NCBI GenBank assembly: GCA_043826565.1
Contig: JBDRPX010000019.1
Location: 5,369-69,368 of the forward strand
Source: Candidatus Omnitrophota bacterium
Lineage (GTDB): Bacteria; Omnitrophota; Gorgyraeia; B26-G9
DNA: 64,000 nt
Reading direction: 5' to 3'
Shown here piece by piece: positions 28,442-51,935 of the stretch. A program made the translations under genes and the position numbers. The notes beneath the pieces were generated by a model. The model saw nothing but the letters and a program-made list of their open reading frames with translations. It was not told the DNA's origin and ran no database searches. How positions within the stretch are numbered: position 1 is the first letter of the stretch; every line of letters begins with the position of its first letter.

Positions 28442-31400
28442 ATGTTTAAATCAAGAAAAATTACAAAGGTAATTGCTGGCATTGTTCTGCAGGTGTTTTT
28501 CTTTTCAAATTTTGCTTTGTGCGGGGATATGAATATGTCTCCTGATAGGGTGCGGAAATCAGATACCCTTGCCCCCCATATCGCGATAGGAATATCTTCG
28601 ATGCAGCAGATGTTTGCAGATACAGTATATCCTAGATGGTCAGCCGGCCGGCAGCAGCTTTCCGTAAATACCGGTGCTAGCGAGAAAGTTTCAACAATAC
28701 ATACCATAGATAATTTAAAACAAAAAGTTAAAGCCGGTAAATCAAAAGGAGTTATTTTGGTAGCCGGAGGCGCCGGATATATCGGAGGGCATACTGACCG
28801 TGCTTTAATGCAATCCGGTTATGATATTGTAATTTTGGATAACCTGGTAAATGGCCGGCGTTTTGTAGTTGAGCGTAATCAGGCTTATGCTCAGGATAAT
28901 GATAAAATTTGTGTTTTTGAACAAGCAGATTTAAAAAATAGTGAAGATGTTCTCAAAAAATATAAAGAAGCGGGAATACCGATTGTCGGAACAATTCATT
29001 TTGCGGCATACATTGAAGTGGGAGTGTCCGTAGAGCGTCCGTGTGTTTATGCTTTAAATAATATTATTAATACTCTCCGGCTGCTTTATGCCGCAAAGAA
29101 ATATGGAGTTAAAAATATTGTATTTTCTTCGTCAGCCGCTGTATATGGGACTCAGAAGAAAATGCCTCTAGAGGAAGGCCGAAGAAAGCACCCCACCAGC
29201 CCTTATGGATTTAATAAATGGGTTATGGAATTAATGATTAAATCATTCCAGAAGCTGGGTATGTCTTGGATTGCCTTGCGTTATTTTAATGCTGCCGGGG
29301 CTGCTTCCGACGGAGCTTTAGGAGAATCTCATCCTCTTCCGGATTCACATGTAATCAGAGCGGTTTTTCGTAGATTTTTAGATGGATTGGCCGCGGCAAT
29401 ATTCGGCCGGGATTATCCCACGGCTGACGGTACTTGTGAACGTGATTATATCCATGTTGAGGATTTGGCAGACGCGCATGTCCGGGCAATTGAAGCTTTA
29501 ATTAACGGAAAAAACCAGGAAGCAATTAACCGAGCATATAATGTCGGAACCGGTGAAGGTCTTTCTGTGTTGGAGATGATTGGTCTGATTACTAAACTAA
29601 TGGGTAAGGTAGTTAAAAAATTCTTTGTCCGGGAAGAAGCCCGTCGAGCTGGTGATCCGCCGGCTTTGGTCGCCGATTCCAGTGATATTCAAAGGAACCT
29701 GGGATGGAAAGCAATGCGTGATCCGCAGGTAATTGTAAAATCAGCGATTAAATGGGATATTTCTCCCCGTCAGCCGGAAGAAATTTATGAACCAAAGCCG
29801 CTTCCGAATATCTCAGAGTATGATGCTTATCAGGAAATCAAAAAAGTTTTAGCAGAAGATAAATTGCTGCCTTTGGGAGTAAAACTTTATATTAAGTGGA
29901 AACTTTTATGGGAGATTAGAACGGCATTAAAGCAGCGTTATGCTAAGGCGGTTAAGTTACTTAAGGCCAAACAGAAAATATATGCGGATAATTCTGACCT
30001 GCAGAAGATGATCAGTGCAAATCTTTTCTTGTTAGAAAAATATAAATGGATTAGCATTGCTGACTTAAGTTTGTTTGGTAAAGGATCAGCTTTTGAAAGA
30101 ATGGATTCTCTGCTTCGTTTTATCGAAAAAGTTCAATGGCCTAAATTAGATAAACTTCCGGAAGATAAAGCTGAGCGTGAGCAATATATTCTTCAAGATC
30201 CGATAGTTGCTGATTGTAAAGCCCAAGAAGCTGTAAAAAATACTTTTTCTTATGATCAGGGGCATGTATTTGATTATTGGCTTCAGTTAAGCAGTGAGGG
30301 AAAAAAGGAATTGTTGGGTTGTCTTACGGTGATTAATTTTGAAGAAGCGTTTAGGCTTTATCAGGAAAACGTAAAAAATAAACAGGATATTAAAGTTGAT
30401 TTCGAATCATTGCATGCGCCGTCAAATATGATGACTGCCGAAGAGGCATTGGCAAGTAATCAGCATTTAATGGCAAATGCTTTACGCATGGGTAAAGTCG
30501 CGGTTTATTTACTTGCCGGAGGCAGCGGAACGCGTTTAGATTATGACCATCCTAAAGGGATGTTTGAGTCCAGCCCATTAAGCGGAGCTTCTTTATATCA
30601 GCAGTTTGCGGATGAGGTTAGGGAGTTGGGTAATCGTTACGAAGCAAAAATACCTTTACTTGTGCAGACTAGTGAAGGCACGGATGAAGAAACAAAAGTA
30701 TTCTTTGCCAATAATAATGATTTTGGGATCCAGGATTCTACCCGGTTTGAACAGCAGCGGAGTTTTCCGGTATTTGATAAAGACGGAAAATTTATTCTGA
30801 CGACAAAGAGTTCTATTCAGATCGGCGGTTTTGGTCATGGAGATGTTACGGATTTTGTTTTACGGAAAAACGACGTGCGCGGCTGGCTGCAGGATAATTT
30901 TGGGACAAAATATGTACTCATGGTTCAGGTGGATAATCCGCTTGCGGTTAAGCAATTAGAGGCAATGTTAGCGGCGCATTTAAAGGATGAACAGCAGCGC
31001 GCATATAATGCTCCGGAAAATGCCGCACATATCAGTTATGGGCTTATTGAAAAACTGGCCCCGGATGACCGGTTGGGAAATCTGGCGGAAACTGAAGAGG
31101 GTTTGTGGCAGATGGTTGAGTATTCGGAAGTCGATCAGCTAAGTGAAGCGGCAAAAAAGAAGATTGTTTCTGATGTGGGCAGTCCGAATATTTTAATGAT
31201 AAGTTTAGACGGTTTAGATAAATTGCCGGCACTTTCAGTGCATGTTGACCGCGGCAAAAAAGTTTTTTCAATGCAGGCCGAGGGAAAGGTTCCCGGAGAT
31301 AAAATGGAAACATTTGTTTTTGATACCCGGGCTTATGGCGCGGCAGTGGTCTTACCTAGATACAGCTCGTTTGCTCCGACTAAGAAAAGAGAGCGTGATG

Positions 31401-33169
31401 CTGCCGGTGTTTTAGCTGATGAAAGCAGGCTTACTGCTGTGGCGGTGCAGTCATATCATCATGCTAAGCAGTTAGAGAAAAAAGGCTGGATAATGCCTGA
31501 TATAGTGGTAGAAGAGGTAGAGGGTAAGTTTGTCCAAAGATATTCGGCACTTGTAGAAATGACTCCGGAGTTTTCCATTGGACAGATTGGCAGTAACGGA
31601 TTTTTAAATCCAGATGGAGGAACTCTTTTCTTAAGCGGAAACAGAACACATATTGGAGATAATTGTCGGATAGAGGGTGGATTATATATTGATGTAAAAA
31701 AGACCGGGGGGCCGCTGGTTGGCGGCGTAGTAAATATCGGTGATAATGTAACTTTTAAAGGTAATGTAAAAATTACTGTGCATGGACATGGAGTAATTCA
31801 TATCCCTGCCGGAGTAACTGTTGATCATGATATTACGGTTTTTGACGGAGAAGTTGTAACCTTATTTAATGAGTCTTTTGAGGGAAGACGGAATAAGGAA
31901 GCGCTGCAGTTTGCCGAGATGATGTTTAAAGACAGCGCGTCTAGTCAGGCAGCGTATGAATTCTTAAAAACCAATAAAACCATTATTAATACTTTTGCCG
32001 GAACATTAAAGGTAGAGTTAGTTCCGGATACTGATCGTATTTCCTATTCCGTGATTATTTCCGCCCGGAATAAAAACAATGACGGCTGGCAAAGAGTCGG
32101 CAATCTGCCGTTTACTTATTTTAGTTCTTTTGAAAATGGCCGGCAAATGGTTACTTTTCCTGATGCAAATGATATTGTTGATGAAAAATGGGTGGGAGTG
32201 GTCGAAGATTATTTGATGATGTTTGCGCTTACTTTTGGAGCGTTTAACGGGGTGAGGTCGCAGGATATTGTTAATGACAGTATTGATCGTAATTTTCTTA
32301 TGCGTTTAGGCTATGATCAGGCAAATAAAATATCTAAGGCCGGAGAAAAGATTGAAGTGATCAGATTTAATCTGCGCGAATTTTCCGCGCTTATGGATCG
32401 AGAACGTTTAACCGAAAGCTCTGTACTGCCTCAACAGAAAAAACTAGGCAGAGTCGATGATGGTTTTGAGGTAGTCGATGAGGTAAAAGCAGTATTTATT
32501 GATATCGGCGGTGTTTTAATCGCGCATGATTTCAGGAAACAGGCAAAAAATCTTAAACAGGCAGCGGGAGATACTAAATATTCGGTTGAGTGGATTGAAG
32601 AACAGTTAAGAGATGAGAGATTTTTAGCGCCTTATGAAAGCGGGGTTATAGACACTCAGGAGTTTTATCGTAGAGTAAAAGCTTTGTTTGGTTGGAATAA
32701 GTTGAGCTATGAAGATTTTGTTAAAGCTTATTTGGATATATATAGTCCGAATCGGGATAATATTGCTGCCTTGCGCAGATTAAAATACGCAGGTTATGAA
32801 ATTTATCTGGTGACCAATGCTGGCCCTTTGGTAAAAGAATTTTGGATGGAAACTTTTCCGGAGATGCATAACTTAGCCGACGGTGTTATTGCTTCCTGTG
32901 AGGTCGGGGTAATGAAGCCGGTTAGAGCGATTTATAAAGGAGCATTAAGAGTTGCCGGAATAGCCGATCCCCGACAGGTTATTTATATTGATGATGTCTA
33001 TGCTAATATTATCGGTGCTGAATTAGAGAAGATGAATGCACTTAAGTATAATCGAGGAAGTGACCTGGGAAATCTGATAAACACTGAGTTTACGAGAATA
33101 ATAACGCATAGTACTGTGGCCCTGCAGCGTATTAAGCTGGCGGTCCAGCTGATCAGCCAGTCAATTTAA
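28442..33169 (+). CDS. 1575-aa multidomain protein: signal/anchor peptide + NAD-dependent UDP-sugar 4-epimerase (GalE-like) + eukaryotic-type UDP-sugar pyrophosphorylase (UAP1/AGX family) + left-handed β-helix + HAD-like hydrolase domain
   Basis: GalE region: 'VAGGAGYIGGHT' Rossmann motif and the 'YGFNKW' YxxxK catalytic motif. UAP1 region: 'VAVYLLAGGSGTRLDYDHPKGMFE' matches the UAP1/UGP 'L(L/N)GG(Q/L)GTRLG..PKG' signature. β-helix region: imperfect hexapeptide repeats around 'IGDNCRIEGG...VNIGDNVTFKGNVKI'. HAD region: 'VFIDIGGVLI', 'YLVTNAG', 'IYIDDV' HAD-like motifs. Confidence 0.75.
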   Translation: MFKSRKITKVIAGIVLQVFFFSNFALCGDMNMSPDRVRKSDTLAPHIAIGISSMQQMFADTVYPRWSAGRQQLSVNTGASEKVSTIHTIDNLKQKVKAGKSKGVILVAGGAGYIGGHTDRALMQSGYDIVILDNLVNGRRFVVERNQAYAQDNDKICVFEQADLKNSEDVLKKYKEAGIPIVGTIHFAAYIEVGVSVERPCVYALNNIINTLRLLYAAKKYGVKNIVFSSSAAVYGTQKKMPLEEGRRKHPTSPYGFNKWVMELMIKSFQKLGMSWIALRYFNAAGAASDGALGESHPLPDSHVIRAVFRRFLDGLAAAIFGRDYPTADGTCERDYIHVEDLADAHVRAIEALINGKNQEAINRAYNVGTGEGLSVLEMIGLITKLMGKVVKKFFVREEARRAGDPPALVADSSDIQRNLGWKAMRDPQVIVKSAIKWDISPRQPEEIYEPKPLPNISEYDAYQEIKKVLAEDKLLPLGVKLYIKWKLLWEIRTALKQRYAKAVKLLKAKQKIYADNSDLQKMISANLFLLEKYKWISIADLSLFGKGSAFERMDSLLRFIEKVQWPKLDKLPEDKAEREQYILQDPIVADCKAQEAVKNTFSYDQGHVFDYWLQLSSEGKKELLGCLTVINFEEAFRLYQENVKNKQDIKVDFESLHAPSNMMTAEEALASNQHLMANALRMGKVAVYLLAGGSGTRLDYDHPKGMFESSPLSGASLYQQFADEVRELGNRYEAKIPLLVQTSEGTDEETKVFFANNNDFGIQDSTRFEQQRSFPVFDKDGKFILTTKSSIQIGGFGHGDVTDFVLRKNDVRGWLQDNFGTKYVLMVQVDNPLAVKQLEAMLAAHLKDEQQRAYNAPENAAHISYGLIEKLAPDDRLGNLAETEEGLWQMVEYSEVDQLSEAAKKKIVSDVGSPNILMISLDGLDKLPALSVHVDRGKKVFSMQAEGKVPGDKMETFVFDTRAYGAAVVLPRYSSFAPTKKRERDAAGVLADESRLTAVAVQSYHHAKQLEKKGWIMPDIVVEEVEGKFVQRYSALVEMTPEFSIGQIGSNGFLNPDGGTLFLSGNRTHIGDNCRIEGGLYIDVKKTGGPLVGGVVNIGDNVTFKGNVKITVHGHGVIHIPAGVTVDHDITVFDGEVVTLFNESFEGRRNKEALQFAEMMFKDSASSQAAYEFLKTNKTIINTFAGTLKVELVPDTDRISYSVIISARNKNNDGWQRVGNLPFTYFSSFENGRQMVTFPDANDIVDEKWVGVVEDYLMMFALTFGAFNGVRSQDIVNDSIDRNFLMRLGYDQANKISKAGEKIEVIRFNLREFSALMDRERLTESSVLPQQKKLGRVDDGFEVVDEVKAVFIDIGGVLIAHDFRKQAKNLKQAAGDTKYSVEWIEEQLRDERFLAPYESGVIDTQEFYRRVKALFGWNKLSYEDFVKAYLDIYSPNRDNIAALRRLKYAGYEIYLVTNAGPLVKEFWMETFPEMHNLADGVIASCEVGVMKPVRAIYKGALRVAGIADPRQVIYIDDVYANIIGAELEKMNALKYNRGSDLGNLINTEFTRIITHSTVALQRIKLAVQLISQSI

Positions 33170-33352
33170 TTAAATAGAGAGAAAAAATAAGAAAAGTTTT
33201 ACTGATTTTTGATCGCTGTCTTCTGATTTTTGGAGTTTGACATATCCGGGGGATTTTGGGATAATCAGAAGGGGGACAGCACCTTTAAATTCACCGCTCC
33301 CGTTTTGGTTGATTACTAGTCGAGGAGCGGTTTTCTTATTTCTGAGGATAAT

Positions 33353-34384
33353 ATGAAAGAAGCGATAACAGGTTTTTTATTAGATGATTTAAAACAGCGC
33401 ATTATTGGTCTGGGACAGCCGGGGTACCGGGCTAAGCAGGTCTTAGAATGGGTATATAAGAAGAATGTGATTTCTTTTTCCCAAATGAAAAATATTCCTG
33501 CTGACTTAAAGCAGTTAATGGATGAAAAGTTTTGTGTAACCGATCTGATCACACAGGAGAAACTTGTTTCTAAAGACAAGACAGCAAAGTATCTTTTTCG
33601 GACGCATGATGGAGAACTTATTGAAGCAGTACTAATCCCTACGCAAAAAAGAACAACAGTGTGTATTTCTACACAAGCCGGCTGCGGGTACGGATGTACG
33701 TTTTGTGCCAGCGGTATCGGCGGTTTAAAACGTAATCTTTTTGTATCGGAGATTGTCAGTCAGGTGCTTTTAATAGAGCAGGATAATCCTCACCGGTCAA
33801 TTACCAATATTGTGATTATGGGTATGGGAGAGCCTTTGGCAAATTATGAGAATACGCTTAAGGCAGTGAGGATTATGAATAGCCCGGACGGGATAGGGAT
33901 CGCCGCGCGTAAAATAACTATCTCCACTTGCGGATTGCCGGAACAAATACTGCATCTTGCGCAGGAAGGGATTCAGGTGGAGTTATCGGTTTCTTTACAT
34001 GCGGCAAATGATGCTTTAAGAGATGACTTAATGCCGATAAATAAAAAATACAATATCGCGAAATTAATAAAGACTGTAAAAGAATACACCAAGCTTACGC
34101 ATCGGATAGTAACCTTTGAATATATAGTAATCGGCGGGGTTAATGACAGTAAAATAGATGCCCAGGGATTAGCCTCATTATTAAAGGGGGTTAGATGTAA
34201 GGTCAATCTTATTCCGTTTAACCCGGTTGAGGGATTAGCTTTCGATCCGCCGCGTCCGCTTAACATCGCGCAAATCGACCAGATGCTTAAAGACAGTTTA
34301 ATAAATGTAACGATAAGGCGTTCCCGCGGAGTAGATATTAAAGGTGCCTGCGGGCAATTACGAGCCGAAGTAGAGAGTAGATAG
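33353..34384 (+). CDS. rlmN: 23S rRNA m2A2503 methyltransferase (radical SAM)
   Basis: 'CISTQAGCGYGCTFCASG' radical-SAM motif and RlmN/Cfr family layout. Confidence 0.85.
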   Translation: MKEAITGFLLDDLKQRIIGLGQPGYRAKQVLEWVYKKNVISFSQMKNIPADLKQLMDEKFCVTDLITQEKLVSKDKTAKYLFRTHDGELIEAVLIPTQKRTTVCISTQAGCGYGCTFCASGIGGLKRNLFVSEIVSQVLLIEQDNPHRSITNIVIMGMGEPLANYENTLKAVRIMNSPDGIGIAARKITISTCGLPEQILHLAQEGIQVELSVSLHAANDALRDDLMPINKKYNIAKLIKTVKEYTKLTHRIVTFEYIVIGGVNDSKIDAQGLASLLKGVRCKVNLIPFNPVEGLAFDPPRPLNIAQIDQMLKDSLINVTIRRSRGVDIKGACGQLRAEVESR

Positions 34385-34387
34385 AAT

Positions 34388-34553
34388 ATATGAAAATTAT
34401 AAATTACAAATTACAACTGCCAAATTACAAACAAATTCCAATATACAAATAACAATAAACAAAAATATTTTGTGTTTTGAAATTTGGGAATTGTATATTG
34501 CTTGTAATTTGGATTTTGTTTATTGTAAATTAACAATTGCACTATTTATGAGG
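34388..34553. repeat. ~150-bp intergenic element, copy 2 (paralog of 4795-4950)
   Basis: Near-identical 45-nt block 'ttgggaattgtatattgcttgtaatttggattttgtttattgtaa', ending about 25 nt before the start codon of the NYN/YacP-like gene. Confidence 0.5.
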
Positions 34554-34558
34554 TTTTT

Positions 34559-35050
34559 ATGTCCCTCCACTATATAATTGATGGATATAATGTTATCAAG
34601 CAGGTTACTTTTTTAACCGGTAAAAAACTTAGAGACGGAAGAGACGGGCTGGTAAGATTTATTGAGAAATACCGTCCTCAGGGAAGCGCGAAGAATGAAG
34701 TAACGATTGTTTTTGACGGTAAAGCGGAGATCAGCAGCCCGGCGATACAATCATCCGTACAGGTTATCTTTAGTAAGAATGAGACCGCGGATGATAAGAT
34801 AAAAAGGATGGTAGAGTCTGCCGGTAATTCCCGGCAGATGGTTATTGTCAGTGATGATAAGGAAATCATGTTTTACTGCCGTTCTTTAGGGGCGAATGTA
34901 AAATCCGTAAAGGAGTTTTTAGATAGTTCTTTTGCGGCTAAGAACAGGCTCAAACCTGCGGAAAAAATAGAGAAGGCAGAATTAAGCAGTGATATAGCGG
35001 ATAAAATTACTGAAGATCTAAAAAAACTTTGGCTGAATAAAGAAAATTGA
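34559..35050 (+). CDS. NYN/YacP-like (PIN-related) putative ribonuclease
   Basis: 'LHYIIDGYNVI' N-terminal motif typical of the YacP/NYN domain. 163 aa. Confidence 0.6.
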   Translation: MSLHYIIDGYNVIKQVTFLTGKKLRDGRDGLVRFIEKYRPQGSAKNEVTIVFDGKAEISSPAIQSSVQVIFSKNETADDKIKRMVESAGNSRQMVIVSDDKEIMFYCRSLGANVKSVKEFLDSSFAAKNRLKPAEKIEKAELSSDIADKITEDLKKLWLNKEN

Positions 35051-35180
35051 AAGTTGAATATTGAAAGTAGATAGGCGAAAAAATATTTTTTTAATTTTAC
35101 AATTTTCAATGTTTAATTTTCTATAGTCAGTTTTTATTTTTTTACAATTCTCAACTTTCAACTGTCAATATTCATATTAT
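35050..35180. repeat. inverted 'TTGAAAGTTGA' repeat pair
   Basis: 'ttgaaagttgaatattgaaagt' ... 'caattctcaactttcaactgtcaatattc'. Confidence 0.45.
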
Positions 35181-36429
35181 GAATAAAACATATGACGTTA
35201 TTGTTGTTGGCGCTGGAGCATCCGGGATGATGGCTGCGGTACAGGCCGCGGAAAACGGTAATCGGGTTTTACTGTTGGAGAGAAATAAATCTCTGGGAAA
35301 AAAAGTTTTACTTACCGGGAACGGCCGCTGTAATCTTACCAATACCGCAGAACTTGGGGGATTTATTGAGCAAATCCCGGATTCCGGGAAGTTTCTTTAT
35401 AATGTTTTCAGCCAATTTTTTTCTGATGATCTTATTGGTTTTTTAAATAAATTCGGCCTAAAAACAAAAGTAGAAAATAATGGGAGAGTATTTCCGGTTA
35501 CGGATAATGCCGGGGATGTCGTTGATGTTTTTAAAGCTTCTCTTAAAAAAAATAATGTAACAATTAAGTTTAGCCGGCATGTAAGCGGCCTGATAATCGC
35601 GGATGGTTGTGCGCAGGGAGTTAAAACGGATTCCGGAGAAATATTTTCCGCACCGAGTGTAATAATTGCTGTTGGAGGGATGAGTTACCCGGAAACCGGT
35701 TCAACAGGTGATGGCTATGTTCTGGCTAAACAGGCACAGCATAAAATTATCCCGCCGTATCCGGGTTTAGTCGGATTGGATATAAAAGAATCATTTGTTA
35801 AGGAAGTGCAGGGAATCAGTCTGGATAAGGTGCAAATAACTCTAGTGGTAAAGGGAAAAAAGAAAGTTAGTAAATTTGGAGAGATGATCTTTACCCATTT
35901 TGGTGTTTCCGGGCCAATGATTTTGGATATTAGCACGTATATTCTAAAGGATGATTGCCCGGAACTGGTAATTGATTTTATGCCGGGATTTTCCCGGGAA
36001 GAGCTGTCTGCGTATATTGATGCGGCGATAAAAATTTCGCCGATTCAATTTTGCCGGAATTGTTTTAAGGAATTATTGCCGAAAAAATTTATTTACGCTT
36101 TAACTGATTATTTGGGGATTGCTGAAAGCAGAAAATTAAATCAGCTTACTAAAAAAGAAAAAACTTGCTTGATAAGTTCTTTGAAAGCGTTACAATTAAC
36201 AGTGAGAAGAACTCGCCCCTTAAAATATGCCATGGTTACCCGGGGAGGAGTATGTGTAAAAGAGATTGATCCGAAAACCATGGAATCAAAGAAGGTAAAA
36301 GGTTTATATTTTTGCGGCGAAGTGCTGGATATTGCCGGTTTGACCGGAGGGTATAACCTTCAGGCAGCTTTTTCAACAGGATATGCCGCGGGTAATGCCC
36401 AACTTAGGAGAGAATATAATGGGAAATAA
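35179..36429 (+). CDS. HI0933/BaiN-family NAD(FAD)-utilising flavoprotein
   Basis: 'YDVIVVGAGASGMMAA' dinucleotide fold and the 'GNGRCNLTN' family motif. Confidence 0.75.
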   Translation: MNKTYDVIVVGAGASGMMAAVQAAENGNRVLLLERNKSLGKKVLLTGNGRCNLTNTAELGGFIEQIPDSGKFLYNVFSQFFSDDLIGFLNKFGLKTKVENNGRVFPVTDNAGDVVDVFKASLKKNNVTIKFSRHVSGLIIADGCAQGVKTDSGEIFSAPSVIIAVGGMSYPETGSTGDGYVLAKQAQHKIIPPYPGLVGLDIKESFVKEVQGISLDKVQITLVVKGKKKVSKFGEMIFTHFGVSGPMILDISTYILKDDCPELVIDFMPGFSREELSAYIDAAIKISPIQFCRNCFKELLPKKFIYALTDYLGIAESRKLNQLTKKEKTCLISSLKALQLTVRRTRPLKYAMVTRGGVCVKEIDPKTMESKKVKGLYFCGEVLDIAGLTGGYNLQAAFSTGYAAGNAQLRREYNGK

Positions 36430-36700: not shown

Positions 36701-36799
36701 ATATTATCCTGTAGGGGCCGGGCTTGCCTCGGCCCGTTAAGAGGATTGACAAATATCCAATCTGCGTATACTATAGAGAAAAAAAGGAACTTTTTATCC

Positions 36800-37483: not shown

Positions 37484-37524
37484 AGGGAGAACTTATTGTG
37501 AACAGTATATTTAGGTTTAAAAAA

Positions 37525-38154
37525 ATGCGTTTATATGCGGCATATCCGTTTGCGGCAATATATCTTTTTCTGGGGTATTGGTATGGAATGAGTTTTAGTA
37601 TCGGGGTATGGTGTATTATTTTAGGATTGATTATCCGTCTTTGGGCGGCCGGGTTTATTAAGAAGAAAAGAGAGCTGGCTGTTGCCGGGCCTTATGCAAT
37701 GGTGCGTAACCCTTTATATCTGGGGAATTTTTTGATGGGATTGGGGTTTTGTTTTTTTATCAGTAATCTGCTTGTTTCGCTGATTTATATAGCGTTATTT
37801 TTTGTTTTTTATACGGGAACGATACGGGATGAAGAGCTTCTTTTGACCCAGCTTTTTGGACAGGAATATCTTGATTATAAAGATAAAGTTCCTTCTTTAT
37901 TTCCGATGTTTAAGTCATATAAATCAAATCAGCCGGCGGCATATAGTGTTGCTCAGGTCGTGCGGAATGGGGAATTTATCCGGGTGGCGGCGACAGCGGT
38001 TGTGTTTTTCGCTCTTTATTTGCTGGAGTATTGCTGGCGCGGAGCGATCGTAAAAGATAAGTTGATAATACTTTGTTTGATGTTTGCGGCTGTTTTTGGA
38101 TTGCTGGTTCTAAGTATAATCCATCGCAAGAAATTTTCGAACAACCAACAATAG
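37525..38154 (+). CDS. isoprenylcysteine carboxyl methyltransferase (ICMT/PEMT) family membrane methyltransferase
   Basis: 'PYAMVRNPLYLGNFL' matches the RHPxYxG family motif. Polytopic. Start uncertain: ATG 37525 or GTG 37498. Confidence 0.55.
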   Translation: MRLYAAYPFAAIYLFLGYWYGMSFSIGVWCIILGLIIRLWAAGFIKKKRELAVAGPYAMVRNPLYLGNFLMGLGFCFFISNLLVSLIYIALFFVFYTGTIRDEELLLTQLFGQEYLDYKDKVPSLFPMFKSYKSNQPAAYSVAQVVRNGEFIRVAATAVVFFALYLLEYCWRGAIVKDKLIILCLMFAAVFGLLVLSIIHRKKFSNNQQ

Positions 38155-38173
38155 TAATAGTCGAAATGAGATC

Positions 38174-39859
38174 ATGCAGAAAATTTGGAATTTCCGGGAA
38201 TTAGATTTACAAAAACAAAAAACCCTGGCAGCTCAGCTGGGGATATCTCCGATAATTGCTCAGATCCTGATCAATCGCGGGATAACTGACGCGGAAGCTG
38301 CGGCGGCTTTTCTTGACTGTGATATGGGAAATTGCCATGATCCTTTTCTGCTTAAAGATATGAGTAAAGCTGTCGAGAGAATAAAAAAGGCGATTGCTTA
38401 TAAAGAAAAGATTGTTGTTTACGGGGATTATGATGTTGATGGGTTGACCAGCTGCTCGCTTTTATTTTATGCGCTTTCGGCATTAGGCGCGGATGTGTCC
38501 TGTTATATCCCGCATCGAATAGAAGAGGGGTATGGAGTAAATCTCCAGGCCTGTGCCGGATTAAAAGAGCAAAAGACAGCTTTAGTGATAACTGTCGATT
38601 GCGGAATAAGTAGTTTTCAGGAAGTAGAATATCTGAATGCTTCCGGAATAGATATTATTATTACCGACCATCATCAGCCTTTAGATGATAAAGTTCCTCA
38701 GGCTCTATGTGTGATTAATCCTCAGCAGAAAGACTGCAAATATCCCTATAAAGAATTAGCCGGGGTCGGCATAGCGTATAAGTTGGCTCAGGGGATTTCC
38801 CGCGGCAGTTTGGATGTCTCGGAACATTTGGACCTGGTTGCCTTAGGAACAATTAGTGATGTTGCGCAATTAACCGGAGAAAACAGGATTTTGGTTAAAC
38901 ACGGATTAAAAGTACTTAGCCAGACAAAGAAAATCGGGCTGAGGGCTTTAATGGATGTAACCGGAATAAAAAAAGGAGCATTGTCTACTTATCATGTTGG
39001 TTTTATCCTGGGGCCGCGTTTAAATGCGATGGGACGGATGGGGTCAGCAGAAAAATCATTGCATCTTTTGCTAAGTAACAGCTATAAACAATCCTATGAA
39101 TTAGCTCTGGCTCTTGATCTTGAGAACAAGCAGCGTCAGAAGACAGAACAGAGGATTTTAAAAGAAGCTATGGCCATGGTCGATACAGAGATCAATTTTA
39201 AACATCACCGGACAGTGGTCTTACACAAGGATACCTGGCATCCCGGAGTTATCGGAATTGTTGCTTCCCGTATCGCGGAAAGATTTTACCGGCCGACTAT
39301 TTTAATTGCCACACAAGAGGGTGTAGGTAAAGGATCGGGCCGGTCTATCCGGGATTTTCACCTTTTTGACACTTTATCAAAATGTAATCATTTACTTGAA
39401 GAATTCGGCGGGCATGAAAATGCTGCCGGTATTAGTATTTTAGAAAAAAACCTGCAAAACTTTAAAGATATTTTTAATCAGGAAGCCTGCAAAGTGCTTA
39501 CTCCGGAAAAATTGCGTCCGGTGGTGGATATTGATATGGAAATTACTTTGGGTGCGCTTTCAGAAAAGCTGATCGAAGAATTAGAAAAATGCGCACCGTT
39601 CGGTATGGGGAATCCCCGTCCGGTATTTGCTTCCCGTAACTTGAAACTTAAACAAAAACCCCGTGTTCTTCGCAATAGTACATTCAAACTTTGGCTGACC
39701 GATGAAACGGTTACCTGTGAAGCTTTGGGAAGCCGTATGGGTGATATTGATGTTGCGTCTATTACCGACGGTCTTTCCATTGTCTATTCGCCCTCAATCA
39801 ATAATTGGCAGGGTATTTCCACTATCCAGCTGCAATTAAAAGACATACAGCTAATTTAA
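38174..39859 (+). CDS. recJ: single-stranded-DNA-specific exonuclease RecJ
   Basis: DHH motifs 'VYGDYDVDGLTS' and 'ITDHHQP', plus the DHHA1 domain. Confidence 0.85.
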   Translation: MQKIWNFRELDLQKQKTLAAQLGISPIIAQILINRGITDAEAAAAFLDCDMGNCHDPFLLKDMSKAVERIKKAIAYKEKIVVYGDYDVDGLTSCSLLFYALSALGADVSCYIPHRIEEGYGVNLQACAGLKEQKTALVITVDCGISSFQEVEYLNASGIDIIITDHHQPLDDKVPQALCVINPQQKDCKYPYKELAGVGIAYKLAQGISRGSLDVSEHLDLVALGTISDVAQLTGENRILVKHGLKVLSQTKKIGLRALMDVTGIKKGALSTYHVGFILGPRLNAMGRMGSAEKSLHLLLSNSYKQSYELALALDLENKQRQKTEQRILKEAMAMVDTEINFKHHRTVVLHKDTWHPGVIGIVASRIAERFYRPTILIATQEGVGKGSGRSIRDFHLFDTLSKCNHLLEEFGGHENAAGISILEKNLQNFKDIFNQEACKVLTPEKLRPVVDIDMEITLGALSEKLIEELEKCAPFGMGNPRPVFASRNLKLKQKPRVLRNSTFKLWLTDETVTCEALGSRMGDIDVASITDGLSIVYSPSINNWQGISTIQLQLKDIQLI

Positions 39860-39943
39860 AGATCTTCCCGCGACTTGCATCAGCCCATCTATTATGGTAT
39901 ACTTTATTACTTTTTGTAACTGAAAGGAAAGTAGTGAAGCCGA

Positions 39944-42030
39944 AACGATCATACTTTTTCATAATATTTATTCTGGCCCAAATATTAATTGTAAGTCCTT
40001 TGCGCGGGGAGACCGGATGTTTATCTCCCGCGCTTAGCCTCAAAGATATATCAAATTGGGTTGCCTATTCTGTTGATAATCATCTTATTCCCAAAGATAC
40101 TGCTGCCGGAGAGCAAGATAGATTTAACGCAATAGCCCGGAATCCTCAGGAACTGCTGGCTTTGGTAAAACAGGAGATGGCTTTTTCCGGCAGTGCGGAA
40201 TTGCCGAAAGTTGTCGTCATGTCTGATTTTCACGGAGCAATAAAAATATTTTTAGATTACATCAGCGATGCCTTATCCCGTAAACTGGGAGTTCCGGTGG
40301 TGCTTGACCATACGGAATTTCCGCGGAAGTCAATACAGCAGCAGCTTGCGGAACAGGGAATTGATATCCGTTCGATAAAGAATTTCCAATTTTATCTGCT
40401 GGGAGATTTCATGGATCGGGGTGAATACGGAGTCAAATGTTTTCTGGCCGCGGAAGAACTTGATTCTCTGGGGCTGGCCAAAATTGTTTTTGGTAATCAT
40501 GATGTTTTTTCTATACTTGCCTGTGTGGGATATCATCTGCCTATATATAAAGGATATAATTTTTACGGACATTATGAATCCGAACAGCTGGTGTTTTCCG
40601 AACACTGGGATGATTTGGAAATCAGCCCAGACCGTTTTGGCTGGTGGCAGGAAAAACTTGTTGAATATATTACGGAGCAAAAAAAACTGCAGGATAACTT
40701 TATTATAGTAAATAACACTCAGGTATCATTCGGGCAGATTCGCGAACAATTAAAAGACATTTGTAAACAGGTGCAGTCCCAGGGAGGGATACCCCAGGAA
40801 CAGATGGAAGTTCTGGGTGATTTAGCGGGATTTTATTTCGGCACGACAGATGTTTATACCGGGTTTAATGCGGTCGGGATGATGTCGGTCCAGTGGTGGG
40901 AAGAACGGCTTGCCAGTGTGGATAAATTTTGTTCTGAAGCGATAGATAAGGAACTTATGCATCAGTTATCCATCTGGGGGCATATTAAACAGTGTATTGA
41001 AGAGGTGATCCCGGTTGTCGGCAGACAATTGCAGGAGAAAAAAGCTCAAGGTAAGTGGTGGTGGCAGGTTTTTAATGATATTAATGATCAGGCTTATAGT
41101 TCTCCGGAATGGTACGCGCAGGACTGGATTTTTCATAACGGATGGGGAGGAAGCGTGTTTAAAGAATTAAATGAGCTTGACTCTGATTTAGAAGATCAAA
41201 AATGGAATGCTTCGAATTTCTTTCGTAATCCTTATCTTAAAAAGTTTACTCGTTTTGGGCATGATAAATTTACTCTTGCCCGGGAAGACCCCTACGGGTT
41301 TTTTTATTCTCATGGATGGTTTCCGGTTAATCGGCAAAGCGGGGTTCCGGGGTTTGTTTATCAAAACACCATATATTCCGGGGAGTATTTATTTTCCGGG
41401 CTGCAAATAGTTGAACAAGATTTTCGTTCGGTTCTGGCGATGCGGATGGATGATAGGCAGGATGATGCGGAAGTTACCCGTCAGCTTAGAGACTCGGTTA
41501 GCCTGGTTATTTCCTGGTACGCGGATAAGACCATTCGTATCAAGCCGGCGCACATTCGTGCTTATTTGGACGGGTTTGGATTAGAAGCTATTCAAAAATC
41601 AATCGGCCGGCATGTCTGGTTTACTTGTCATAATCCGTTGAATACTTTAATTCCCCTGGGAATAGGCTTTAGTATGCAGGAAGGTGATTATGTCCATATT
41701 TCTGTTGATAAAGGGATGAGCTGGGAAAAATTCCGAGATGTCGGCGGATATGTGGAAGTCGATGCCTCTTCCGGAATTGTTTTACGCGGCTATAGCGGCA
41801 ATGATTTTACTCAGATTATTGATACCCCTCCGGCAATGGTTATGTCAAAGGATCAATATGGCCAATGGTACCATGAGTCGCTTTGGGAAAATAAATCAGT
41901 TAGCCGGGAGACTCTTTTACCGATAGCTGCTGCCCAGCTTGCTGAAAAATTGTATGCTCCGGAAGTTGCCGGTTCAGTAGAGGCTAAAAACCTGCCGCCG
42001 GCTTTATCCCTTATTGAGCAGGCAATTTAG
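39944..42030 (+). CDS. fbp: fructose-1,6-bisphosphatase class 3 (metallophosphoesterase-type, Firmicutes Fbp/YydE-like) with an N-terminal signal/anchor peptide
   Basis: 'VMSDFHG', 'LLGDFMDRGEYG' and 'VFGNHDVFSILACVG' align with B. subtilis Fbp 'FVSDLHG', 'VVGDIYDRGPQP' and 'QWGNHDVLWIGAYSG'. C-terminal matches include 'NTIYSGEYLFSG' vs 'WTGEYSSLFG'. Likely GTG start at 39944 (RBS 'aggaaag'), giving 'MKPKRSYFFIIFILAQILIVSPLRGETGCLSP'. Confidence 0.7.
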
Positions 42031-42263
42031 CGTGTTTTGCCCCCAAGCTTAAATATTAGTAATTTTAAAATGAGTTGATTTTCTAATACCTTCCTACACA
42101 ATAAGTTACATCTGCGAAAAAAATCAAAGCCACCTTGCGAGATTTTATTTTATATGGTATACTTTTAGGAATTTTGTAAACTTTTTAAAGCTGATTTTTA
42201 AACATTACTAAAATAAGTTTGGCAAATTAAGCGATTTTGTAACTATGAAAGGAGTAGCGCCAT

Positions 42264-45200
42264 ATGTTTATGTCTTCAAAAACCAACCTGTTTTTCAAAG
42301 TCATTTCTTTTATTATCATGCAGTCGTTTTTAATCACTAATATTTCCTTTGCTGCGGGAGGTAATTTTTTTGTTAATTCAGAAGAAAGGGGTTGTTTGTC
42401 ACCAGAGATGCAGATACCTAACCAAATAATGATGAGAGATTTTAAAAACCAGACGATTATTAAAGGAGATTTATCCCAACTTACTTCTATTTTACCTAAA
42501 GCTATCATTGGTGAAGATGAGGCATATGAACAGTTAAAACGTTTAGCTTTAACTACTCCTGAAACTTTGATCGAATATTTTGAAGCTCAGTTACCTGAGG
42601 CTATTGAAGCGATGACAGAATCTATGTTTGGTAAGGGATTTGGTTATGATGTGCGCGGAAATGCCTGGGAAGTAGCTTCCGGTGAAGTAGATTTAACTCC
42701 TTTGAGTTGTTATTTGATCGGAAAAGCGCTGGCCACAAGATATGCCGAACAGGGAGAAGGTGTCGAATTTACCGGAGACCAGAGAATACATACGCCGATG
42801 TTAAGACTGGCATTATCTCTCGGAGCGCAGTCTGCCGGAGCAAAGCTGTTTTTTAGTGATGAGATTGTCGGTACCGGTGAACATGGGATATTATCCGGAG
42901 AGAATCCTAATAATGTTAAGGTTATGGGGCAGGTTTCCGGATCTCACGGTATTCCGGCAAAGAATGGTTTTAAACTAAAAGTAATAGATCCTAAAACCGG
43001 CCAGTTAGAACCGCTGTATGGGAAAGAATTAGCTAATCTGTATACTTTGATTAAAAGCGGGAATTTAAGAACAGTAGAAAGTTTTATTCCGCTGACAGAG
43101 CAGAATGATCTTATTGAAAAAGCAGTAGATGCTTATGATAAGACATTACCCCAGGTGTCAGTTGATCAGCCGGTAGTTTTTGATTGCCGTAATTCAGCAT
43201 TAACTACAGTATTAAAAAAGATAGTTGAAAAAAGAGGATTGAAGAATGTATTCTGGCTGAATGATACCCCGGATGGAAGAATGCCGGGTGGAATTTGGGA
43301 CCCTTCTAAACCGGAAGCTTTGGTTGCTTGCCAGAATAAAGTTCTGGAGATTAATGCTTCAGGACAGTTTAAGAAAAAAGCCATAGGATTTGTGTTTGAT
43401 GGAGATGGAGACCGGGCGGCAGCGATTTTAGAGGATGGAAGAGCAGTTCCTTCTTTTGAAATGACCCTTCCTTTTTATCAGAGATTGTTCTCTGATCCGA
43501 TTAATCAGGAAGTAATGAATACACTGATTAATGCCGGATTTGATAAGATATGGGCAATAACCGATATTCGCGCTAATTCCCGTTTAAAAAATATGTTTCG
43601 CAGGTATTCTGACTGGATAACCGGTAAATATATTACTACGGGATATCCGCCGCAAAGAGCGGTTGTACGTCATATATTTAGTGAAATAGAAAAATATGTT
43701 GCCGCCAACCCAAGCAAGTTTGATGCTGGTTTTGCGGAAAAGCTTAGACATTTTAAGACCACATATTTTACGGCAGAAGCATCCGGCCATCAGTTTTTTC
43801 ATATTTGTCCAAATTATCCGGAAAAAGTAATTGATGCGGGTATCGCCGTAGCTTTTAATTTATTGCATATTAAAGAAACAATTCAGGATGTAGAAGCTAA
43901 GGATGAAAAAGTCGGATTATCGGCAGGACAAGATTCTTATTTACTGACAGAACTTTTTGATCATTTTCCTCCGGCGATCAGTTCCGGAGAAGTCAGGATC
44001 GTTGTGCCGAATTCAATTAAGTTTGAAGTAACCGATGCGATGATTGTTAAATTAAAAGAAAAATATGCGGATGATTTTTTACCGACCCCTCTGGGAACAG
44101 TTGATATGGGGGATTACTTATTGCAGGATATGGATGAAGGAAAAGTAGAAGTTGCCGGATTTTTGGGGTTACTTAAGACCGGCGGCAGCTTTTTGTTTCG
44201 CGTATCAAATACCGGTGAGCAGTGTACATTGATATTTGAAGGCGGAGATATTCAGGAGCTTATTAGGCTGATGGAAGAAATGAAACAGTTGGTTTTAGAT
44301 ACTAAAGCTGAATTTGAAGCAGACGCATCAACTGCGGAAGCGGCAAAAAATATTAAAGTCGATGATTTGGAAAAGGAAATTCAAATGACAATTGAAGCGG
44401 CTGAAGAAATAACTCCGGCAGCTCCGATAGTTATTAATACTGCTACTCTACAGGCTGATTCTTTAGGTGCTTTAAGCCTGAGTAATGGCGAAATTGCCGA
44501 TGTTAATAGGACGATGGAAGGTATCCAAAGAACAATGCAATTTGAAGATAATGATGTGACTACCGAGCTTGGCCGTCAGAGGTTGTTAAAGAACTGGCGC
44601 GGTTGGGTGTTTGGAGAACAGGAATGGGCAAACCAGGGAATTGAAGATACTGTTACGGTAGCTCAGAAAGTTCGTGATGATAATCCTGAGGCATTTGTGG
44701 TTGTTGGTGTCGGCGGATCAGATCAGACAACAAAGGGAATTGTTAATGCCAATATCAGTACTCAGCATAATCTGCTTTCTAAAGAAGCTAGAGGCGGGGC
44801 TCCGATGTTATTCTACACCGGTGATGGTTTTGATCCGAATAGTACCTATGATACATTACAGGTTCTTGATGAAAAAGGGATTTTGTTTAAAACAAAATTC
44901 AATATAATTTCTAAATCCGGAACTACCGGGGAAACAGCGCATGCTTTCCTGGTTATTAAAAGTTATCTTGAAGTTAGATTAGAACAGCTTGCTGTGCAAT
45001 ACGCGGCACGTCAGATAAAGGACAAAGACTTAGAAGCTATGGGTTTAACTGCTAAAGATCTAGAGAAAGTAACATTGAATTATACAGTAAAATTAGATGC
45101 CGGAGAAGAAGCTGTCACAGAAGAAACTTTCCGTACCGGGCGTTTCTTTGTCTTTACCACAGGCTTAAATGATAAGAGCGCATTGTATAATTATGTTCAG

Positions 45201-46103
45201 CTTATTCGTGAACAGGCAGGTGATGATGTGTTTGGATTATTGCCGGTTCCGGATGGTACCGGAGGAAGATACTCTTTTGGTACAGCCGTGGGTATGCTGG
45301 CGATGGGAGTAATGGCAAATACAAGCAAGGGAGAAACTCCGGAAAGCAGAATAAGACAGGTATTAGAGGCGATAAAAGATGTGCGTAACGAAATTTTAAA
45401 CGGTAGTGTTGAAGGTGATAATGTTCCTTCATTTGCTATTGCCCGGGCTAATTATTTAGCAGAAAAACACGGCTTAGGAACAGTGGCGATATATCCGTTT
45501 GCAAATATGTTACAGGAATTTGCTAATCTGATGATGCAGCTTTCTACAGAATCAATTCGGGAAAAGGGTCAGGGACAGAATATTCTTCCGTTGGTTGGTC
45601 CTTCACGTAACCACTCTGTAGTGAATGGAATTATTAATGGGCCCAGAGATACCATCATATGTTTTATTGAAGTTGCTGCTTTTGACCCGGCAAAAGATGC
45701 AACTATTACTGGTGGAAAAGTACTTGGCGGAAGCTTAATGCAGCTGGAGCAATTAAAACAGTCTGATATCCAGAAGGCATCTTTGGATGGGACTCTTAAG
45801 GATGCGATTGAAAAGGGTGTGCCGGCTTACAAGATTACAATTCCGGCTTTAACTCCGTATTATGTAGCTAAGTTAATTGCTTATTTTGAGCATGAAGTAG
45901 CTATTGAAGGAATGCTTAGAGGACTTAGAGAGCCTTCGAATGCAGAAGGTGTTTATGTTGATTTAACCTATTTGCAGTCTAGTGTTGAAGGATATAAGGC
46001 TCAGACCCGTGCTATCTTAAGTGAGATAAGAGCAGCTAAGTTTGGACCTGTCCAGACATCAGCTAATCGTGACATGGTTAGTGTAGTCGGTAGTTCCATA
46101 TAA
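42264..46103 (+). CDS. 1279-aa fusion: signal peptide + α-D-phosphohexomutase (PGM/PMM/AGM family) + glucose-6-phosphate isomerase (PGI)
   Basis: Phosphohexomutase region: active-site-loop-like 'VSGSHGIPAKNGFK' and Mg-binding 'FDGDGDRAA'. PGI region: SIS 'VVVGVGGSDQT' and signature 'PDGTGGRYSFGTAVGM'. N-terminal 'MFMSSKTNLFFKVISFIIMQSFLITNISFA|AGG...ERGCLSPEM'. Confidence 0.75.
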   Translation: MFMSSKTNLFFKVISFIIMQSFLITNISFAAGGNFFVNSEERGCLSPEMQIPNQIMMRDFKNQTIIKGDLSQLTSILPKAIIGEDEAYEQLKRLALTTPETLIEYFEAQLPEAIEAMTESMFGKGFGYDVRGNAWEVASGEVDLTPLSCYLIGKALATRYAEQGEGVEFTGDQRIHTPMLRLALSLGAQSAGAKLFFSDEIVGTGEHGILSGENPNNVKVMGQVSGSHGIPAKNGFKLKVIDPKTGQLEPLYGKELANLYTLIKSGNLRTVESFIPLTEQNDLIEKAVDAYDKTLPQVSVDQPVVFDCRNSALTTVLKKIVEKRGLKNVFWLNDTPDGRMPGGIWDPSKPEALVACQNKVLEINASGQFKKKAIGFVFDGDGDRAAAILEDGRAVPSFEMTLPFYQRLFSDPINQEVMNTLINAGFDKIWAITDIRANSRLKNMFRRYSDWITGKYITTGYPPQRAVVRHIFSEIEKYVAANPSKFDAGFAEKLRHFKTTYFTAEASGHQFFHICPNYPEKVIDAGIAVAFNLLHIKETIQDVEAKDEKVGLSAGQDSYLLTELFDHFPPAISSGEVRIVVPNSIKFEVTDAMIVKLKEKYADDFLPTPLGTVDMGDYLLQDMDEGKVEVAGFLGLLKTGGSFLFRVSNTGEQCTLIFEGGDIQELIRLMEEMKQLVLDTKAEFEADASTAEAAKNIKVDDLEKEIQMTIEAAEEITPAAPIVINTATLQADSLGALSLSNGEIADVNRTMEGIQRTMQFEDNDVTTELGRQRLLKNWRGWVFGEQEWANQGIEDTVTVAQKVRDDNPEAFVVVGVGGSDQTTKGIVNANISTQHNLLSKEARGGAPMLFYTGDGFDPNSTYDTLQVLDEKGILFKTKFNIISKSGTTGETAHAFLVIKSYLEVRLEQLAVQYAARQIKDKDLEAMGLTAKDLEKVTLNYTVKLDAGEEAVTEETFRTGRFFVFTTGLNDKSALYNYVQLIREQAGDDVFGLLPVPDGTGGRYSFGTAVGMLAMGVMANTSKGETPESRIRQVLEAIKDVRNEILNGSVEGDNVPSFAIARANYLAEKHGLGTVAIYPFANMLQEFANLMMQLSTESIREKGQGQNILPLVGPSRNHSVVNGIINGPRDTIICFIEVAAFDPAKDATITGGKVLGGSLMQLEQLKQSDIQKASLDGTLKDAIEKGVPAYKITIPALTPYYVAKLIAYFEHEVAIEGMLRGLREPSNAEGVYVDLTYLQSSVEGYKAQTRAILSEIRAAKFGPVQTSANRDMVSVVGSSI

Positions 46104-46124
46104 GCACTAAATTACGAATTAAAA

Positions 46125-48732: not shown

Positions 48733-48743
48733 GGAGGTTTATA

Positions 48744-51905: not shown

Positions 51906-51935
51906 ATTTCTTTAGATTGAAAGGAAGAGAAAGTT

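Follow-up and report, generated by a model that had tools for sequence, protein, structure and literature searches.

Three large forward-strand genes, which we call P1, P2 and P3, encode sugar-phosphate and nucleotide-sugar enzymes behind N-termini that, as judged from sequence, have every property of Sec signal peptides. They lie in a 64,000-nt stretch of Candidatus Omnitrophota DNA (the window, in whose positions all coordinates are given), and the sequence rules say that the enzyme chains should lie beyond the cytoplasmic membrane. The Omnitrophota are a widespread phylum of ultra-small bacteria, most of them uncultured, and many appear to be dependent on a host or prey. We give most weight to the reading that P1–P3 are small Omnitrophota multi-enzyme fusions that are exported by Sec, carry short shared motifs at both ends (the N-tag and the C-tag) that are read by a partner, and act, most plausibly, in or at a cell of a host or prey. 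Our reason is that all of the sequence features favour translocation; with all its parts included, we place this reading a little short of an even chance. The signal would take the chains over the cytoplasmic membrane through Sec and would probably be cut by signal peptidase I, and the flexible N- and C-tags might then be read by a lineage-specific partner, either for further sorting or for docking of the enzymes. The enzymes would act outside the cytoplasm of the producer where sugar phosphates, UTP and NAD exist, most plausibly in the attached host or prey cell, in which hexose phosphates would be converted to UDP-sugars. The genes and the terminal features that carry the argument are the following (aa, amino acids).

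28442..33169, + strand: gene P1 (1575 aa), signal, GalE, UAP-type UDP-sugar pyrophosphorylase, beta-helix-like stretch and HAD phosphatase, by open reading frame (ORF), Pfam and NCBIfam, with an upstream AGGA-type ribosome-binding site (RBS)
28442..28522, + strand: N-terminal Sec-type signal of P1, MFKSRKITK followed by VIAGIVLQVFFFSNFALC; charge +4, 19 uncharged aa, sole hydrophobic segment
28562..28615, + strand: post-signal motif (N-tag) of P1, DTLAPHIAIGISSMQQMF; 23 bits with the N-tag hidden Markov model (HMM) at aa 40-60, P1 being in its training set
33137..33166, + strand: C-tag of P1, ...LAVQLISQSI-COOH
39934..42030, + strand: gene P2 (698 aa), signal and PPP-type metallophosphoesterase resembling class-3 fructose-1,6-bisphosphatase (FBPase); RBS and GTG start, identical to the NCBI call P0006
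39934..40008, + strand: N-terminal signal of P2, MKPKR followed by SYFFIIFILAQILIVSPLRG, by charge and hydrophobicity; sole hydrophobic segment
40009..40071, + strand: N-tag of P2, ETGCLSPALSLKDISNWVAYS; kept in 14 P2-family members, model pLDDT below 50
41998..42027, + strand: C-tag of P2, ...PPALSLIEQAI-COOH; ends of the ...[E/Q]QAI type in P0006-P0019, unpacked in the model
42264..46103, + strand: gene P3 (1279 aa), signal, alpha-D-phosphohexomutase and glucose-6-phosphate isomerase (PGI), by ORF, Pfam, NCBIfam and a GGAG RBS
42264..42353, + strand: N-terminal signal of P3, …KTNLFFK followed by VISFIIMQSFLITNISFA and then AGG; SN..FA c-region like that of the outer-membrane protein (OMP) signal at 36746
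42384..42443, + strand: N-tag of P3, EERGCLSPEMQIPNQIMMRDF; 27.6 bits with the N-tag HMM, P3 being in its training set
46071..46100, + strand: C-tag of P3, ...DMVSVVGSSI-COOH

Each of the three proteins begins with an n-region of net charge +2 to +4 followed by 18-19 uncharged hydrophobic residues and a c-region that contains small residues, after which the mature part starts out acidic or neutral, and the signals of their homologues are built alike (n-region charge +2 to +6, 17-28 uncharged residues). The first-pass annotation of this DNA had read these N-termini as classical signal or signal-anchor peptides, and the charge, the h-region and the c-region agree with it, as does the like style of the bona fide signals of OMPs and of a TonB receptor in the window (FLLSNSVFA/IPA, compared with FLITNISFA/AGG in P3). 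The predicted signal peptidase I site of P3 is canonical (SFA/A) and those of P1 (ALC/G(D)) and P2 (LRG/E) are less so; many P2-family members carry canonical AxA-type sites (SLA, ASA, AFA, AGA, VYA, APA and GYA). All N-complete multi-domain relatives recovered in the UDPGP and PGM (phosphoglucomutase) families present a signal-like segment, as do nearly all members of the P2 family, and a hydrophobic N-terminus is missing from the single-domain UAP homologues of ~470 aa. P1, P2 and P3 contain exactly one hydrophobic segment each, the N-terminal one, so that each whole enzyme chain should lie on one side of the membrane, and the overlooked transmembrane (TM) helix that could explain the topology of giant relatives in this phylum cannot apply to them. 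Two other export routes were considered and set aside: a Tat signal, as the twin-arginine pair (RR) is missing from all three n-regions (although tatC is present in the window), and a lipoprotein signal, as there is no lipobox and the Cys of the CLSP motif in the N-tag stands 4-20 residues past the h-region, behind charged residues. In several members this Cys is swapped for Y, H or T.

The annotation had also named a mis-called start codon as the finding that would overturn the signals, the true starts being downstream and the apparent signals untranslated or mis-framed. The raw ORF list did give an overlong start for P2 (TTG 39805, overlapping recJ). We nevertheless consider the chance of such an artefact to be almost negligible, since the starts that take in the hydrophobic segment have RBS-like AGGA/GGAG boxes 5-10 nt ahead of them, more than 30 homologues, some with as little as ~35% identity, keep both the segment and the following motif in frame, and the independent NCBI gene calls include the segment as well. 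The corrected start of P2 is GTG 39934, behind an AGGA box; position 39944, which had been given before, is ~10 nt off and out of frame. In the case of P3, the NCBI start is two codons downstream (1277 aa).

The same hydrophobic segment could instead be a retained, uncleaved anchor. P1–P3 would then form a membrane-tethered metabolon with the enzymes on the cytoplasmic face, channelling carbon from gluconeogenesis to UDP-sugars and so supplying the synthesis of envelope glycan or alpha-glucan, and the terminal tags would dock the enzymes to one another or to a membrane glycosyltransferase. We take this explanation as a whole to be possible, if somewhat unlikely. Of 18 tag-bearing N-termini, 15 have a Gln halfway along the hydrophobic segment (…LLIQxCLL…, IIMQSFLI, IVLQVFFF), which is unusual if the signal is cleaved off and discarded and suits a retained, interacting helix better. 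However, the positive-inside rule (positive N-flank, neutral or acidic C-flank) puts the bulk of the proteins outside, the c-regions resemble signal peptidase I sites and those of the OMPs in the window, and the single-domain homologues manage without an anchor.

Past the predicted cleavage site, at a distance of 4-20 residues, the three proteins share the N-tag [C/T]L[S/A]PxΦxΦ…F (GCLSPALSLKD in P2, GCLSPEMQIPNQIMMRDF in P3 and TLAPHIAIGISSMQQMF in P1), and their C-termini are alike too, of the form …[Q/S][A/S]I (LIEQAI in P2, LISQSI in P1 and VGSSI in P3). Both tags of P2 fall in low-confidence, unpacked termini of an otherwise confident structural model, which supports the exported, partner-read interpretation. 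In the P2 family, all 14 CLSP-type members end in QAI-like residues. The nearest orthologue of P3 (L041:3987-7352, 62% identity) has the same type of N-tag, with DCLSPQLQIQ at the equivalent site, independently of the HMM training set. An unrelated protein with no Pfam match, of 262 aa by its coordinates and also listed at 284 aa (L003:1888-2673), encoded 8 kb from a P2 homologue with the same tag types, bears both an N-tag (DCLSPRLQIENLSIQGF) and a C-terminal LIELAI, and the N-tag is also found in a 3012-aa protein (P0147). Other lineages have other tag pairs (ALRIPL with …L, FGLSV with VLxAA), and many multi-domain relatives end in LRSL, LWSL or LRSA. The tags thus vary by lineage and not by enzyme family, which is the pattern expected of signals read by a co-evolving partner.

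The tags are short, and their statistics have to be read accordingly. The expression L[SA]P.[LIVMF].[LIVM] matches only P1–P3 in the window, but these three matches, compared with 1.85 in shuffles, are not above chance; the tag claim therefore rests on position and on conservation in orthologues rather than on frequency. A terminal Ile is common (7 of 45 window genes), the N-tag HMM was trained on sequences that it recovers, and the independent support comes to about five protein families. No NCBIfam model matches either tag, and a census with an alignment of 18 N-tags against a collection of 5.8 billion proteins gave 235 word-sharing candidates, none of them with E<=10. We also considered that the tags could be module junctions inside giant proteins, as in a polyprotein, but this idea was rejected because the tag HMM gave only N-terminal matches. 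The available text of the two preprints on Omnitrophota giant proteins makes no mention of shared terminal tags, which to that extent appear to be new. A more specific proposal is that [C/Y/T]-L-[S/A]-P-x-Φ-x-Φ-[E/Q]…F together with Φ-x-[E/S]-[Q/S]-[A/S]-I represents an undescribed lineage-specific sorting or docking code, by which a whole nucleotide-sugar pathway would be led out of the cytoplasm of the producer, or assembled there, to act in or at a host or prey cell, the giants of other lineages joining the same modules covalently; we hold this proposal to be rather doubtful. An S41 protease of CtpA/Prc type, itself bearing a signal peptide and a PDZ domain, is encoded in the window at 60467-61798 on the - strand. 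Proteases of this type recognise C-terminal residues of exported proteins, and this one could be, purely as speculation, a candidate reader of the C-tag.

The catalytic parts of the three proteins are arranged as follows.

28754..29764, + strand: GalE-type UDP-hexose 4-epimerase domain of P1, aa 105-441 (TIGR01179; GGAGYIG, SSSAAVYG and YGFNK intact)
30338..31390, + strand: UDPGP domain of P1, UAP1/AGX-like, aa 633-983 (Pfam; LAGGSGTRL and HPKG motifs)
31529..31786, + strand: beta-helix-like stretch of P1 after UDPGP, ~aa 1030-1115 (weak Hexapep_2)
32483..33064, + strand: HAD-IA phosphatase domain of P1, YihX (glucose-1-phosphatase)-like, aa 1348-1541 (Pfam; FIDIGGV and IYIDD motifs)
40126..41964, + strand: catalytic body of P2, aa 65-677, with DFHG, GDFMDRG and GNHD metal-binding motifs
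42636..44333, + strand: phosphohexomutase part of P3, ~aa 125-690, with SGSHG, DGDGDR, AEASGH and RVSNTG loops
44595..45998, + strand: PGI part of P3, ~aa 778-1245, with GVGGS and SKSGTTGET motifs

The domain composition first proposed for P1 (a GalE-like epimerase, a UAP1/AGX-type pyrophosphorylase, a beta-helix and a HAD domain) agrees with the Pfam and NCBIfam matches, the beta-helix being the weak member (Hexapep_2, E 0.0036, ~aa 1070-1085), although a similar stretch follows UDPGP in the multi-domain relatives P0034 and P0036-39. The epimerase matches Pfam Epimerase at aa 105-369 (E 2.9e-46) and passes the equivalog cutoff of the NCBIfam GalE model TIGR01179 (325.4 bits, cutoff 262.3), and it is the only module in P1–P3 that reaches an equivalog threshold. 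The pyrophosphorylase (PF01704) scores 71.3 bits with a Pfam cutoff of 22 and keeps LAGGSGTRL as its glycine-rich loop. Its best PDB matches, 8yp3, 1vm8 and 1jv1, are UDP-GlcNAc pyrophosphorylases (E 1e-22 to 1e-24), and these neighbours agree with its earlier description as eukaryotic-type; however, genome and metagenome data contain 1186 clusters of this family at E<=1e-10, mostly of ~470 aa and without a signal. The closest relative of this region lies within a protein of 4802 aa (P0034, 40% identity). The HAD domain is recognised by Pfam Hydrolase (E 1.2e-9, aa 1348-1526) and by NF006991 (E 3.6e-16, below the cutoff of that model). A GNAT-like acetyltransferase at aa 1100-1340, suggested by eye from a comparison with P0034, was rejected, as Pfam detects none in P1 or in P0038.

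The fusion of a phosphohexomutase and a PGI proposed for P3 likewise holds, with PGM_PMM_I and II and PGI above the Pfam cutoffs. The former two cover aa 130-392, Pfam shows no domain III or IV, and the four signature loops of the mutase (phosphoserine, metal, sugar and phosphate) are all present. The best NCBIfam match of the mutase is the archaeal GlmM, at 71 bits with a cutoff of 439, and no equivalog cutoff is reached. The PGI part (PF00342) scores 36.4 bits with a Pfam cutoff of 22 and is far below the NCBIfam equivalog cutoffs (NF010697, E 2.9e-32, 112 bits with a cutoff of 443); the PDB neighbours of P3 are the PGI structures 2q8n (E 2e-18) and 3ifs, and PMM/PGM. A metagenome scan with the PGM-family alignment returned only six loci. 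Directly upstream of the P3 orthologue, L041:1597-3108 encodes a signal-less GH77 4-alpha-glucanotransferase (amylomaltase).

The assignment of P2 as a class-3 FBPase stands in part. Its DxHG, GDxxDRG and GNHD motifs are invariant across the P2 family and it matches Pfam Metallophos (E 1e-4), but with FBPase_2 (PF06874) it gives only 12.6 bits with a cutoff of 27, covering 57 positions of a ~640-aa profile. FBPase_2 matches were found in 5 of 26 P2-family members, the best of them with E 1.9e-4 and all of them sub-cutoff, and a profile search of the PDB with P2 did not recover class-3 FBPase by sequence. The structural side is more favourable. The AF2/AlphaFold model built from 26 homologues has a pLDDT of 84.5, with both termini unpacked and below 50, and in Foldseek its sole significant match in the PDB is the Bacillus subtilis class-3 FBPase (9a7j_A, E 4e-9); the match spans the full length, with a low TM-score (0.33-0.36) and with 9a7j_A itself being an integrative model. 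In addition, P2-like domains are fused to ROK sugar kinases in P0030-32 and a relative (L019) has a TPI-like motif stretch (by eye only), both of which fit a sugar-phosphate substrate. From the model, the class-3 label thus represents a remote fold-level match, and it is plausible that P2 is an FBPase-like sugar (bis)phosphatase.

In all six enzyme modules of P1–P3 the catalytic and metal-binding motifs that we checked are intact, and neither the P2 nor the PGM family shows any variation in them; the best explanation of these sequences is that P1–P3 are catalytically competent. This bears on the suggestion that the proteins are exported as non-catalytic moonlighting forms, with the enzyme folds serving as sugar- or nucleotide-binding adhesins or as surface scaffolds. 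Glycolytic enzymes moonlight on many microbial surfaces, and the giant relatives carry many binding repeats, but with every tested motif intact we consider this use of the folds to be very improbable.

The order in which the enzymes had been proposed to act, from fructose 1,6-bisphosphate through fructose 6-phosphate, glucose 6-phosphate and glucose 1-phosphate to a UDP-sugar and its 4-epimer, is reasonable and biochemically coherent, and the enzyme set and the fusions found in relatives favour it. The assignment comes from superfamily membership, with GalE alone at equivalog level and the FBPase step of P2 being plausible. The sugar could be an N-acetylhexosamine rather than glucose, because the best match of the mutase is GlmM and the nearest neighbours of the pyrophosphorylase are UDP-GlcNAc pyrophosphorylases. 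Rosetta-stone fusions in relatives join UDPGP with PGM (P0043), with PGI (P0061) and with ROK (P0039), PGM and PGI are fused again in P0004 and P0005, and PGM is fused with iPGM in P0002. Such shuffling of UDPGP, PGM, PGI, ROK, FBPase-like, TPI-like (by eye) and iPGM modules points to one pathway leading from sugar phosphates to nucleotide sugars. P0061 (929 aa) is a signal-less fusion outside the class, so the link between pyrophosphorylase and isomerase is not confined to signal-bearing proteins. On another Omnitrophota contig (L038), huge genes stand in a row at 1-4985, 5019-9944 and 10001-14704: the first encodes a 3050-aa protein with cupin-PGI, triose-phosphate isomerase (TIM), phosphoglycerate kinase (PGK) and enolase, and is described as a neighbour of P0002, the second a signal-bearing protein of 1641 aa with no Pfam match, and the third is the PGM-iPGM fusion P0002, so that much of glycolysis is fused there in megaproteins. 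A different group of relatives (P0004, P0043, P0045, P0047, P0048, P0052, P0053 and P0131, and loci L044 and L045) shares an N-terminal domain of several hundred residues after the signal, with H-x-Q-D-x-H-x-N-x-E-A-Q and (I/L)TGGFHT(E/Q/K/S)G motifs, which looks Tiki/TraB/ChaN-like by eye.

Exported enzymes of this kind might also serve the producing cell itself, by pre-processing scavenged sugar phosphates in the periplasm or at the cell surface. The phosphatases, the PGI and the mutase, which use no nucleotide, would then be the only activities that matter, and the pyrophosphorylase and the epimerase would do nothing or work backwards, as in the salvage of UDP-sugars from lysed cells to hexose 1-phosphate. 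The signal features are the same as those that support export to a host or prey, the presence of two phosphatases (P2 and the HAD domain) suits nutrient scavenging, and the pyrophosphorylase and GalE reactions are both reversible in established enzymology. The idea was already proposed for the giants by West-Roberts et al. (10.1101/2023.11.21.568195). On the other hand, the NAD- and UTP-binding motifs of P1–P3 are fully conserved, pyrophosphorolysis needs extracellular pyrophosphate, the mutase needs a bisphosphate activator, and the fusions with ATP-dependent ROK kinases in relatives misfit an ATP-free compartment. We regard this scavenging role, reverse mode included, as decidedly unlikely.

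Several points weigh against export to a host or prey as well. UTP, NAD, Mg and glucose 1,6-bisphosphate are not expected in the periplasm, and Sec export of cofactor-binding enzymes of 700-1575 aa is unusual. The signal and topology calls come from a heuristic analysis of n-, h- and c-regions, and no secretion machinery linked to P1–P3 is present in the window. Judging from sequence, the ATP-dependent ROK kinases of the relatives and the fusion of TIM, PGK and enolase beside P0002 look like cytoplasmic core metabolism, and the GH77 gene beside the P3 orthologue hints at an ordinary intracellular alpha-glucan metabolism. The contact with a host or prey is taken by analogy from a cultured relative and not from the source metagenome-assembled genome (MAG). 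Some of these observations favour the cytoplasmic metabolon in turn: the needs for UTP and NAD and the ATP-dependent kinases point to the cytoplasm, as do the fused TIM, PGK and enolase of the 3050-aa protein on L038 and the cytoplasmic-type GH77 gene next to the P3 orthologue. Moreover, canonical PGI is reported in only 67 of 176 complete genomes (10.64898/2026.06.07.730766), and the divergent fused copies may be the working ones.

The window belongs to the chromosome of a Candidatus Omnitrophota MAG and is an unremarkable part of it; past its ends, only short Logan contigs were recovered. The P2 and P3 proteins are 100% identical to NCBI entries annotated as Candidatus Omnitrophota bacterium, the nearest proteins to P1–P3 all come from Omnitrophota MAGs, and the related loci are mostly from Omnitrophota MAGs too. 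As had been noted before, P1, P2 and P3 are separated by housekeeping genes, namely rlmN, yacP, an HI0933-like flavoprotein, an OMP, an ICMT-like methyltransferase and recJ. More widely, the window contains leuA, aroE, aroC, a chemotaxis cluster, a TonB-dependent receptor and trkH, together with hemB, hemL, tatC, tsaD and the CtpA-type protease. P1–P2–P3 is not a conserved cluster, operon or island, because none of the 36 genome loci surrounding P2 homologues carries a relative of P1 or P3. Each gene has its own RBS, and the best explanation is that the three are transcribed separately. Two further features belong to the transcription of P3.

42135..42163, + strand: promoter-like site with an extended -10 (TG-TATACT) upstream of P3, by consensus match only
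46121..46155, + strand: strong intrinsic-terminator-like hairpin (14 bp stem and T run) that ends the P3 transcription unit

Extended -10-like elements of similar type are found upstream of P2 (TGGTATACT, 39895-39912) and upstream of P3 (42153-42168); TGTGGTAAACT is an element of the same kind, the P1 counterpart lying upstream of that gene at ~28335-28350. The sole gene of type II secretion or type IV pilus type in the window encodes a prepilin peptidase (2189-2977), ~26 kb from P1 (PilZ was screened in ORFs of at least 150 aa). Genes at 48720-53222 encode HemB, a radical-SAM/SPASM protein, an AsnC/NirDL-like protein and HemL, and resemble a siroheme-dependent (alternative) haem biosynthesis cluster. 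The GC skew is strongly positive from 1 to ~56 kb and then negative, gene orientation flips there from + to -, and the switch point at ~56000 resembles a convergence of replichores (terminus-like) or an inversion boundary.

If export is true, P1–P3 would represent a bacterial multi-step nucleotide-sugar pathway outside the producing cell, and the tags would be signs of a novel system for sorting or docking. If the location is cytoplasmic, a whole phylum is misread by the usual rules for signals and topology, and all secretome predictions and metabolic reconstructions of the Omnitrophota would be affected, for example the scoring of PGI as absent in most complete genomes.

With the canonical cytoplasmic enzymes of the Leloir and UDP-sugar pathways (GalE, UAP1/AGX or GalU, PGM/GlmM, PGI and class-3 FBPase), P1–P3 share folds and catalytic motifs, but the canonical enzymes are single-domain, soluble and signal-less whereas P1–P3 are fused, signal-bearing and strongly diverged. 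The secreted hexokinases of microsporidia (PMC6460350) are similar in that a signal peptide has been added to a cytosolic sugar-phosphorylating enzyme that acts in or at the host; they are, however, eukaryotic, of the ER type, single enzymes and backed by localisation data, whereas P1–P3 are known from their genes, so the likeness is a functional analogy only. The combination of a Sec signal at one end with a family-independent, lineage-specific tag at the other is also that of the C-terminal domain (CTD) of the type IX secretion system, of PEP-CTERM/exosortase and of LPXTG/sortase. Unlike those bipartite sorting systems, the tags of P1–P3 come with neither an NCBIfam match nor an identified cognate sorting enzyme, and their C-tag is a stretch of ~6-10 residues with a free hydrophobic end, not an 80-aa beta-sandwich nor a motif followed by a TM helix and a basic tail.

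The closest comparison is with the giant proteins of the same phylum. The first-pass annotation knew of no described system with this architecture, but two preprints do report such domains in parts of Omnitrophota giants that are predicted to be extracellular. West-Roberts et al. (2023, bioRxiv 10.1101/2023.11.21.568195) list domains of TPI, PGI, FBPase, PGM/PMM and aldolase type in such regions, and offer either a topology error or extracellular sugar pre-processing as the explanation. The second, from 2026, describes giants of a "multi-enzyme metabolic cluster" that are rich in PGM, starch-synthase, GT1, ROK and HAD domains, 94% of them with a signal or TM segment (10.64898/2026.06.07.730766). 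For Ca. Velamenicoccus archaeovorus, a relative in culture, predator and prey are reported to be in open cytoplasmic contact in electron micrographs (PMC13153191). Like Archaeovorin and the multi-enzyme giants, P1–P3 come from this phylum, carry an N-terminal signal and have PGM/PMM, PGI, FBPase-like, HAD and, in relatives, ROK domains tiled on chains that are predicted to lie beyond the cytoplasm; P1 has three catalytic domains and P3 two, and P2 has one, though its homologues are fused to ROK. Unlike the giants, which exceed 10-100 thousand aa, P1–P3 measure 1575, 698 and 1279 aa, have one signal and no further TM helices, lack dockerin, TPR and peptidase modules, and have no giant gene or PilZ gene beside them (among the ORFs screened). 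P1–P3 are thus compact members of the signal- or TM-bearing multi-enzyme class of the Omnitrophota, a phenomenon that has been reported and is unexplained. The giant-gene preprints raised the question of central-carbon enzymes behind export signals in this phylum, and P1–P3, at 0.7-1.6 thousand aa clonable, with a single signal each and with intact catalytic motifs, make that question experimentally tractable.

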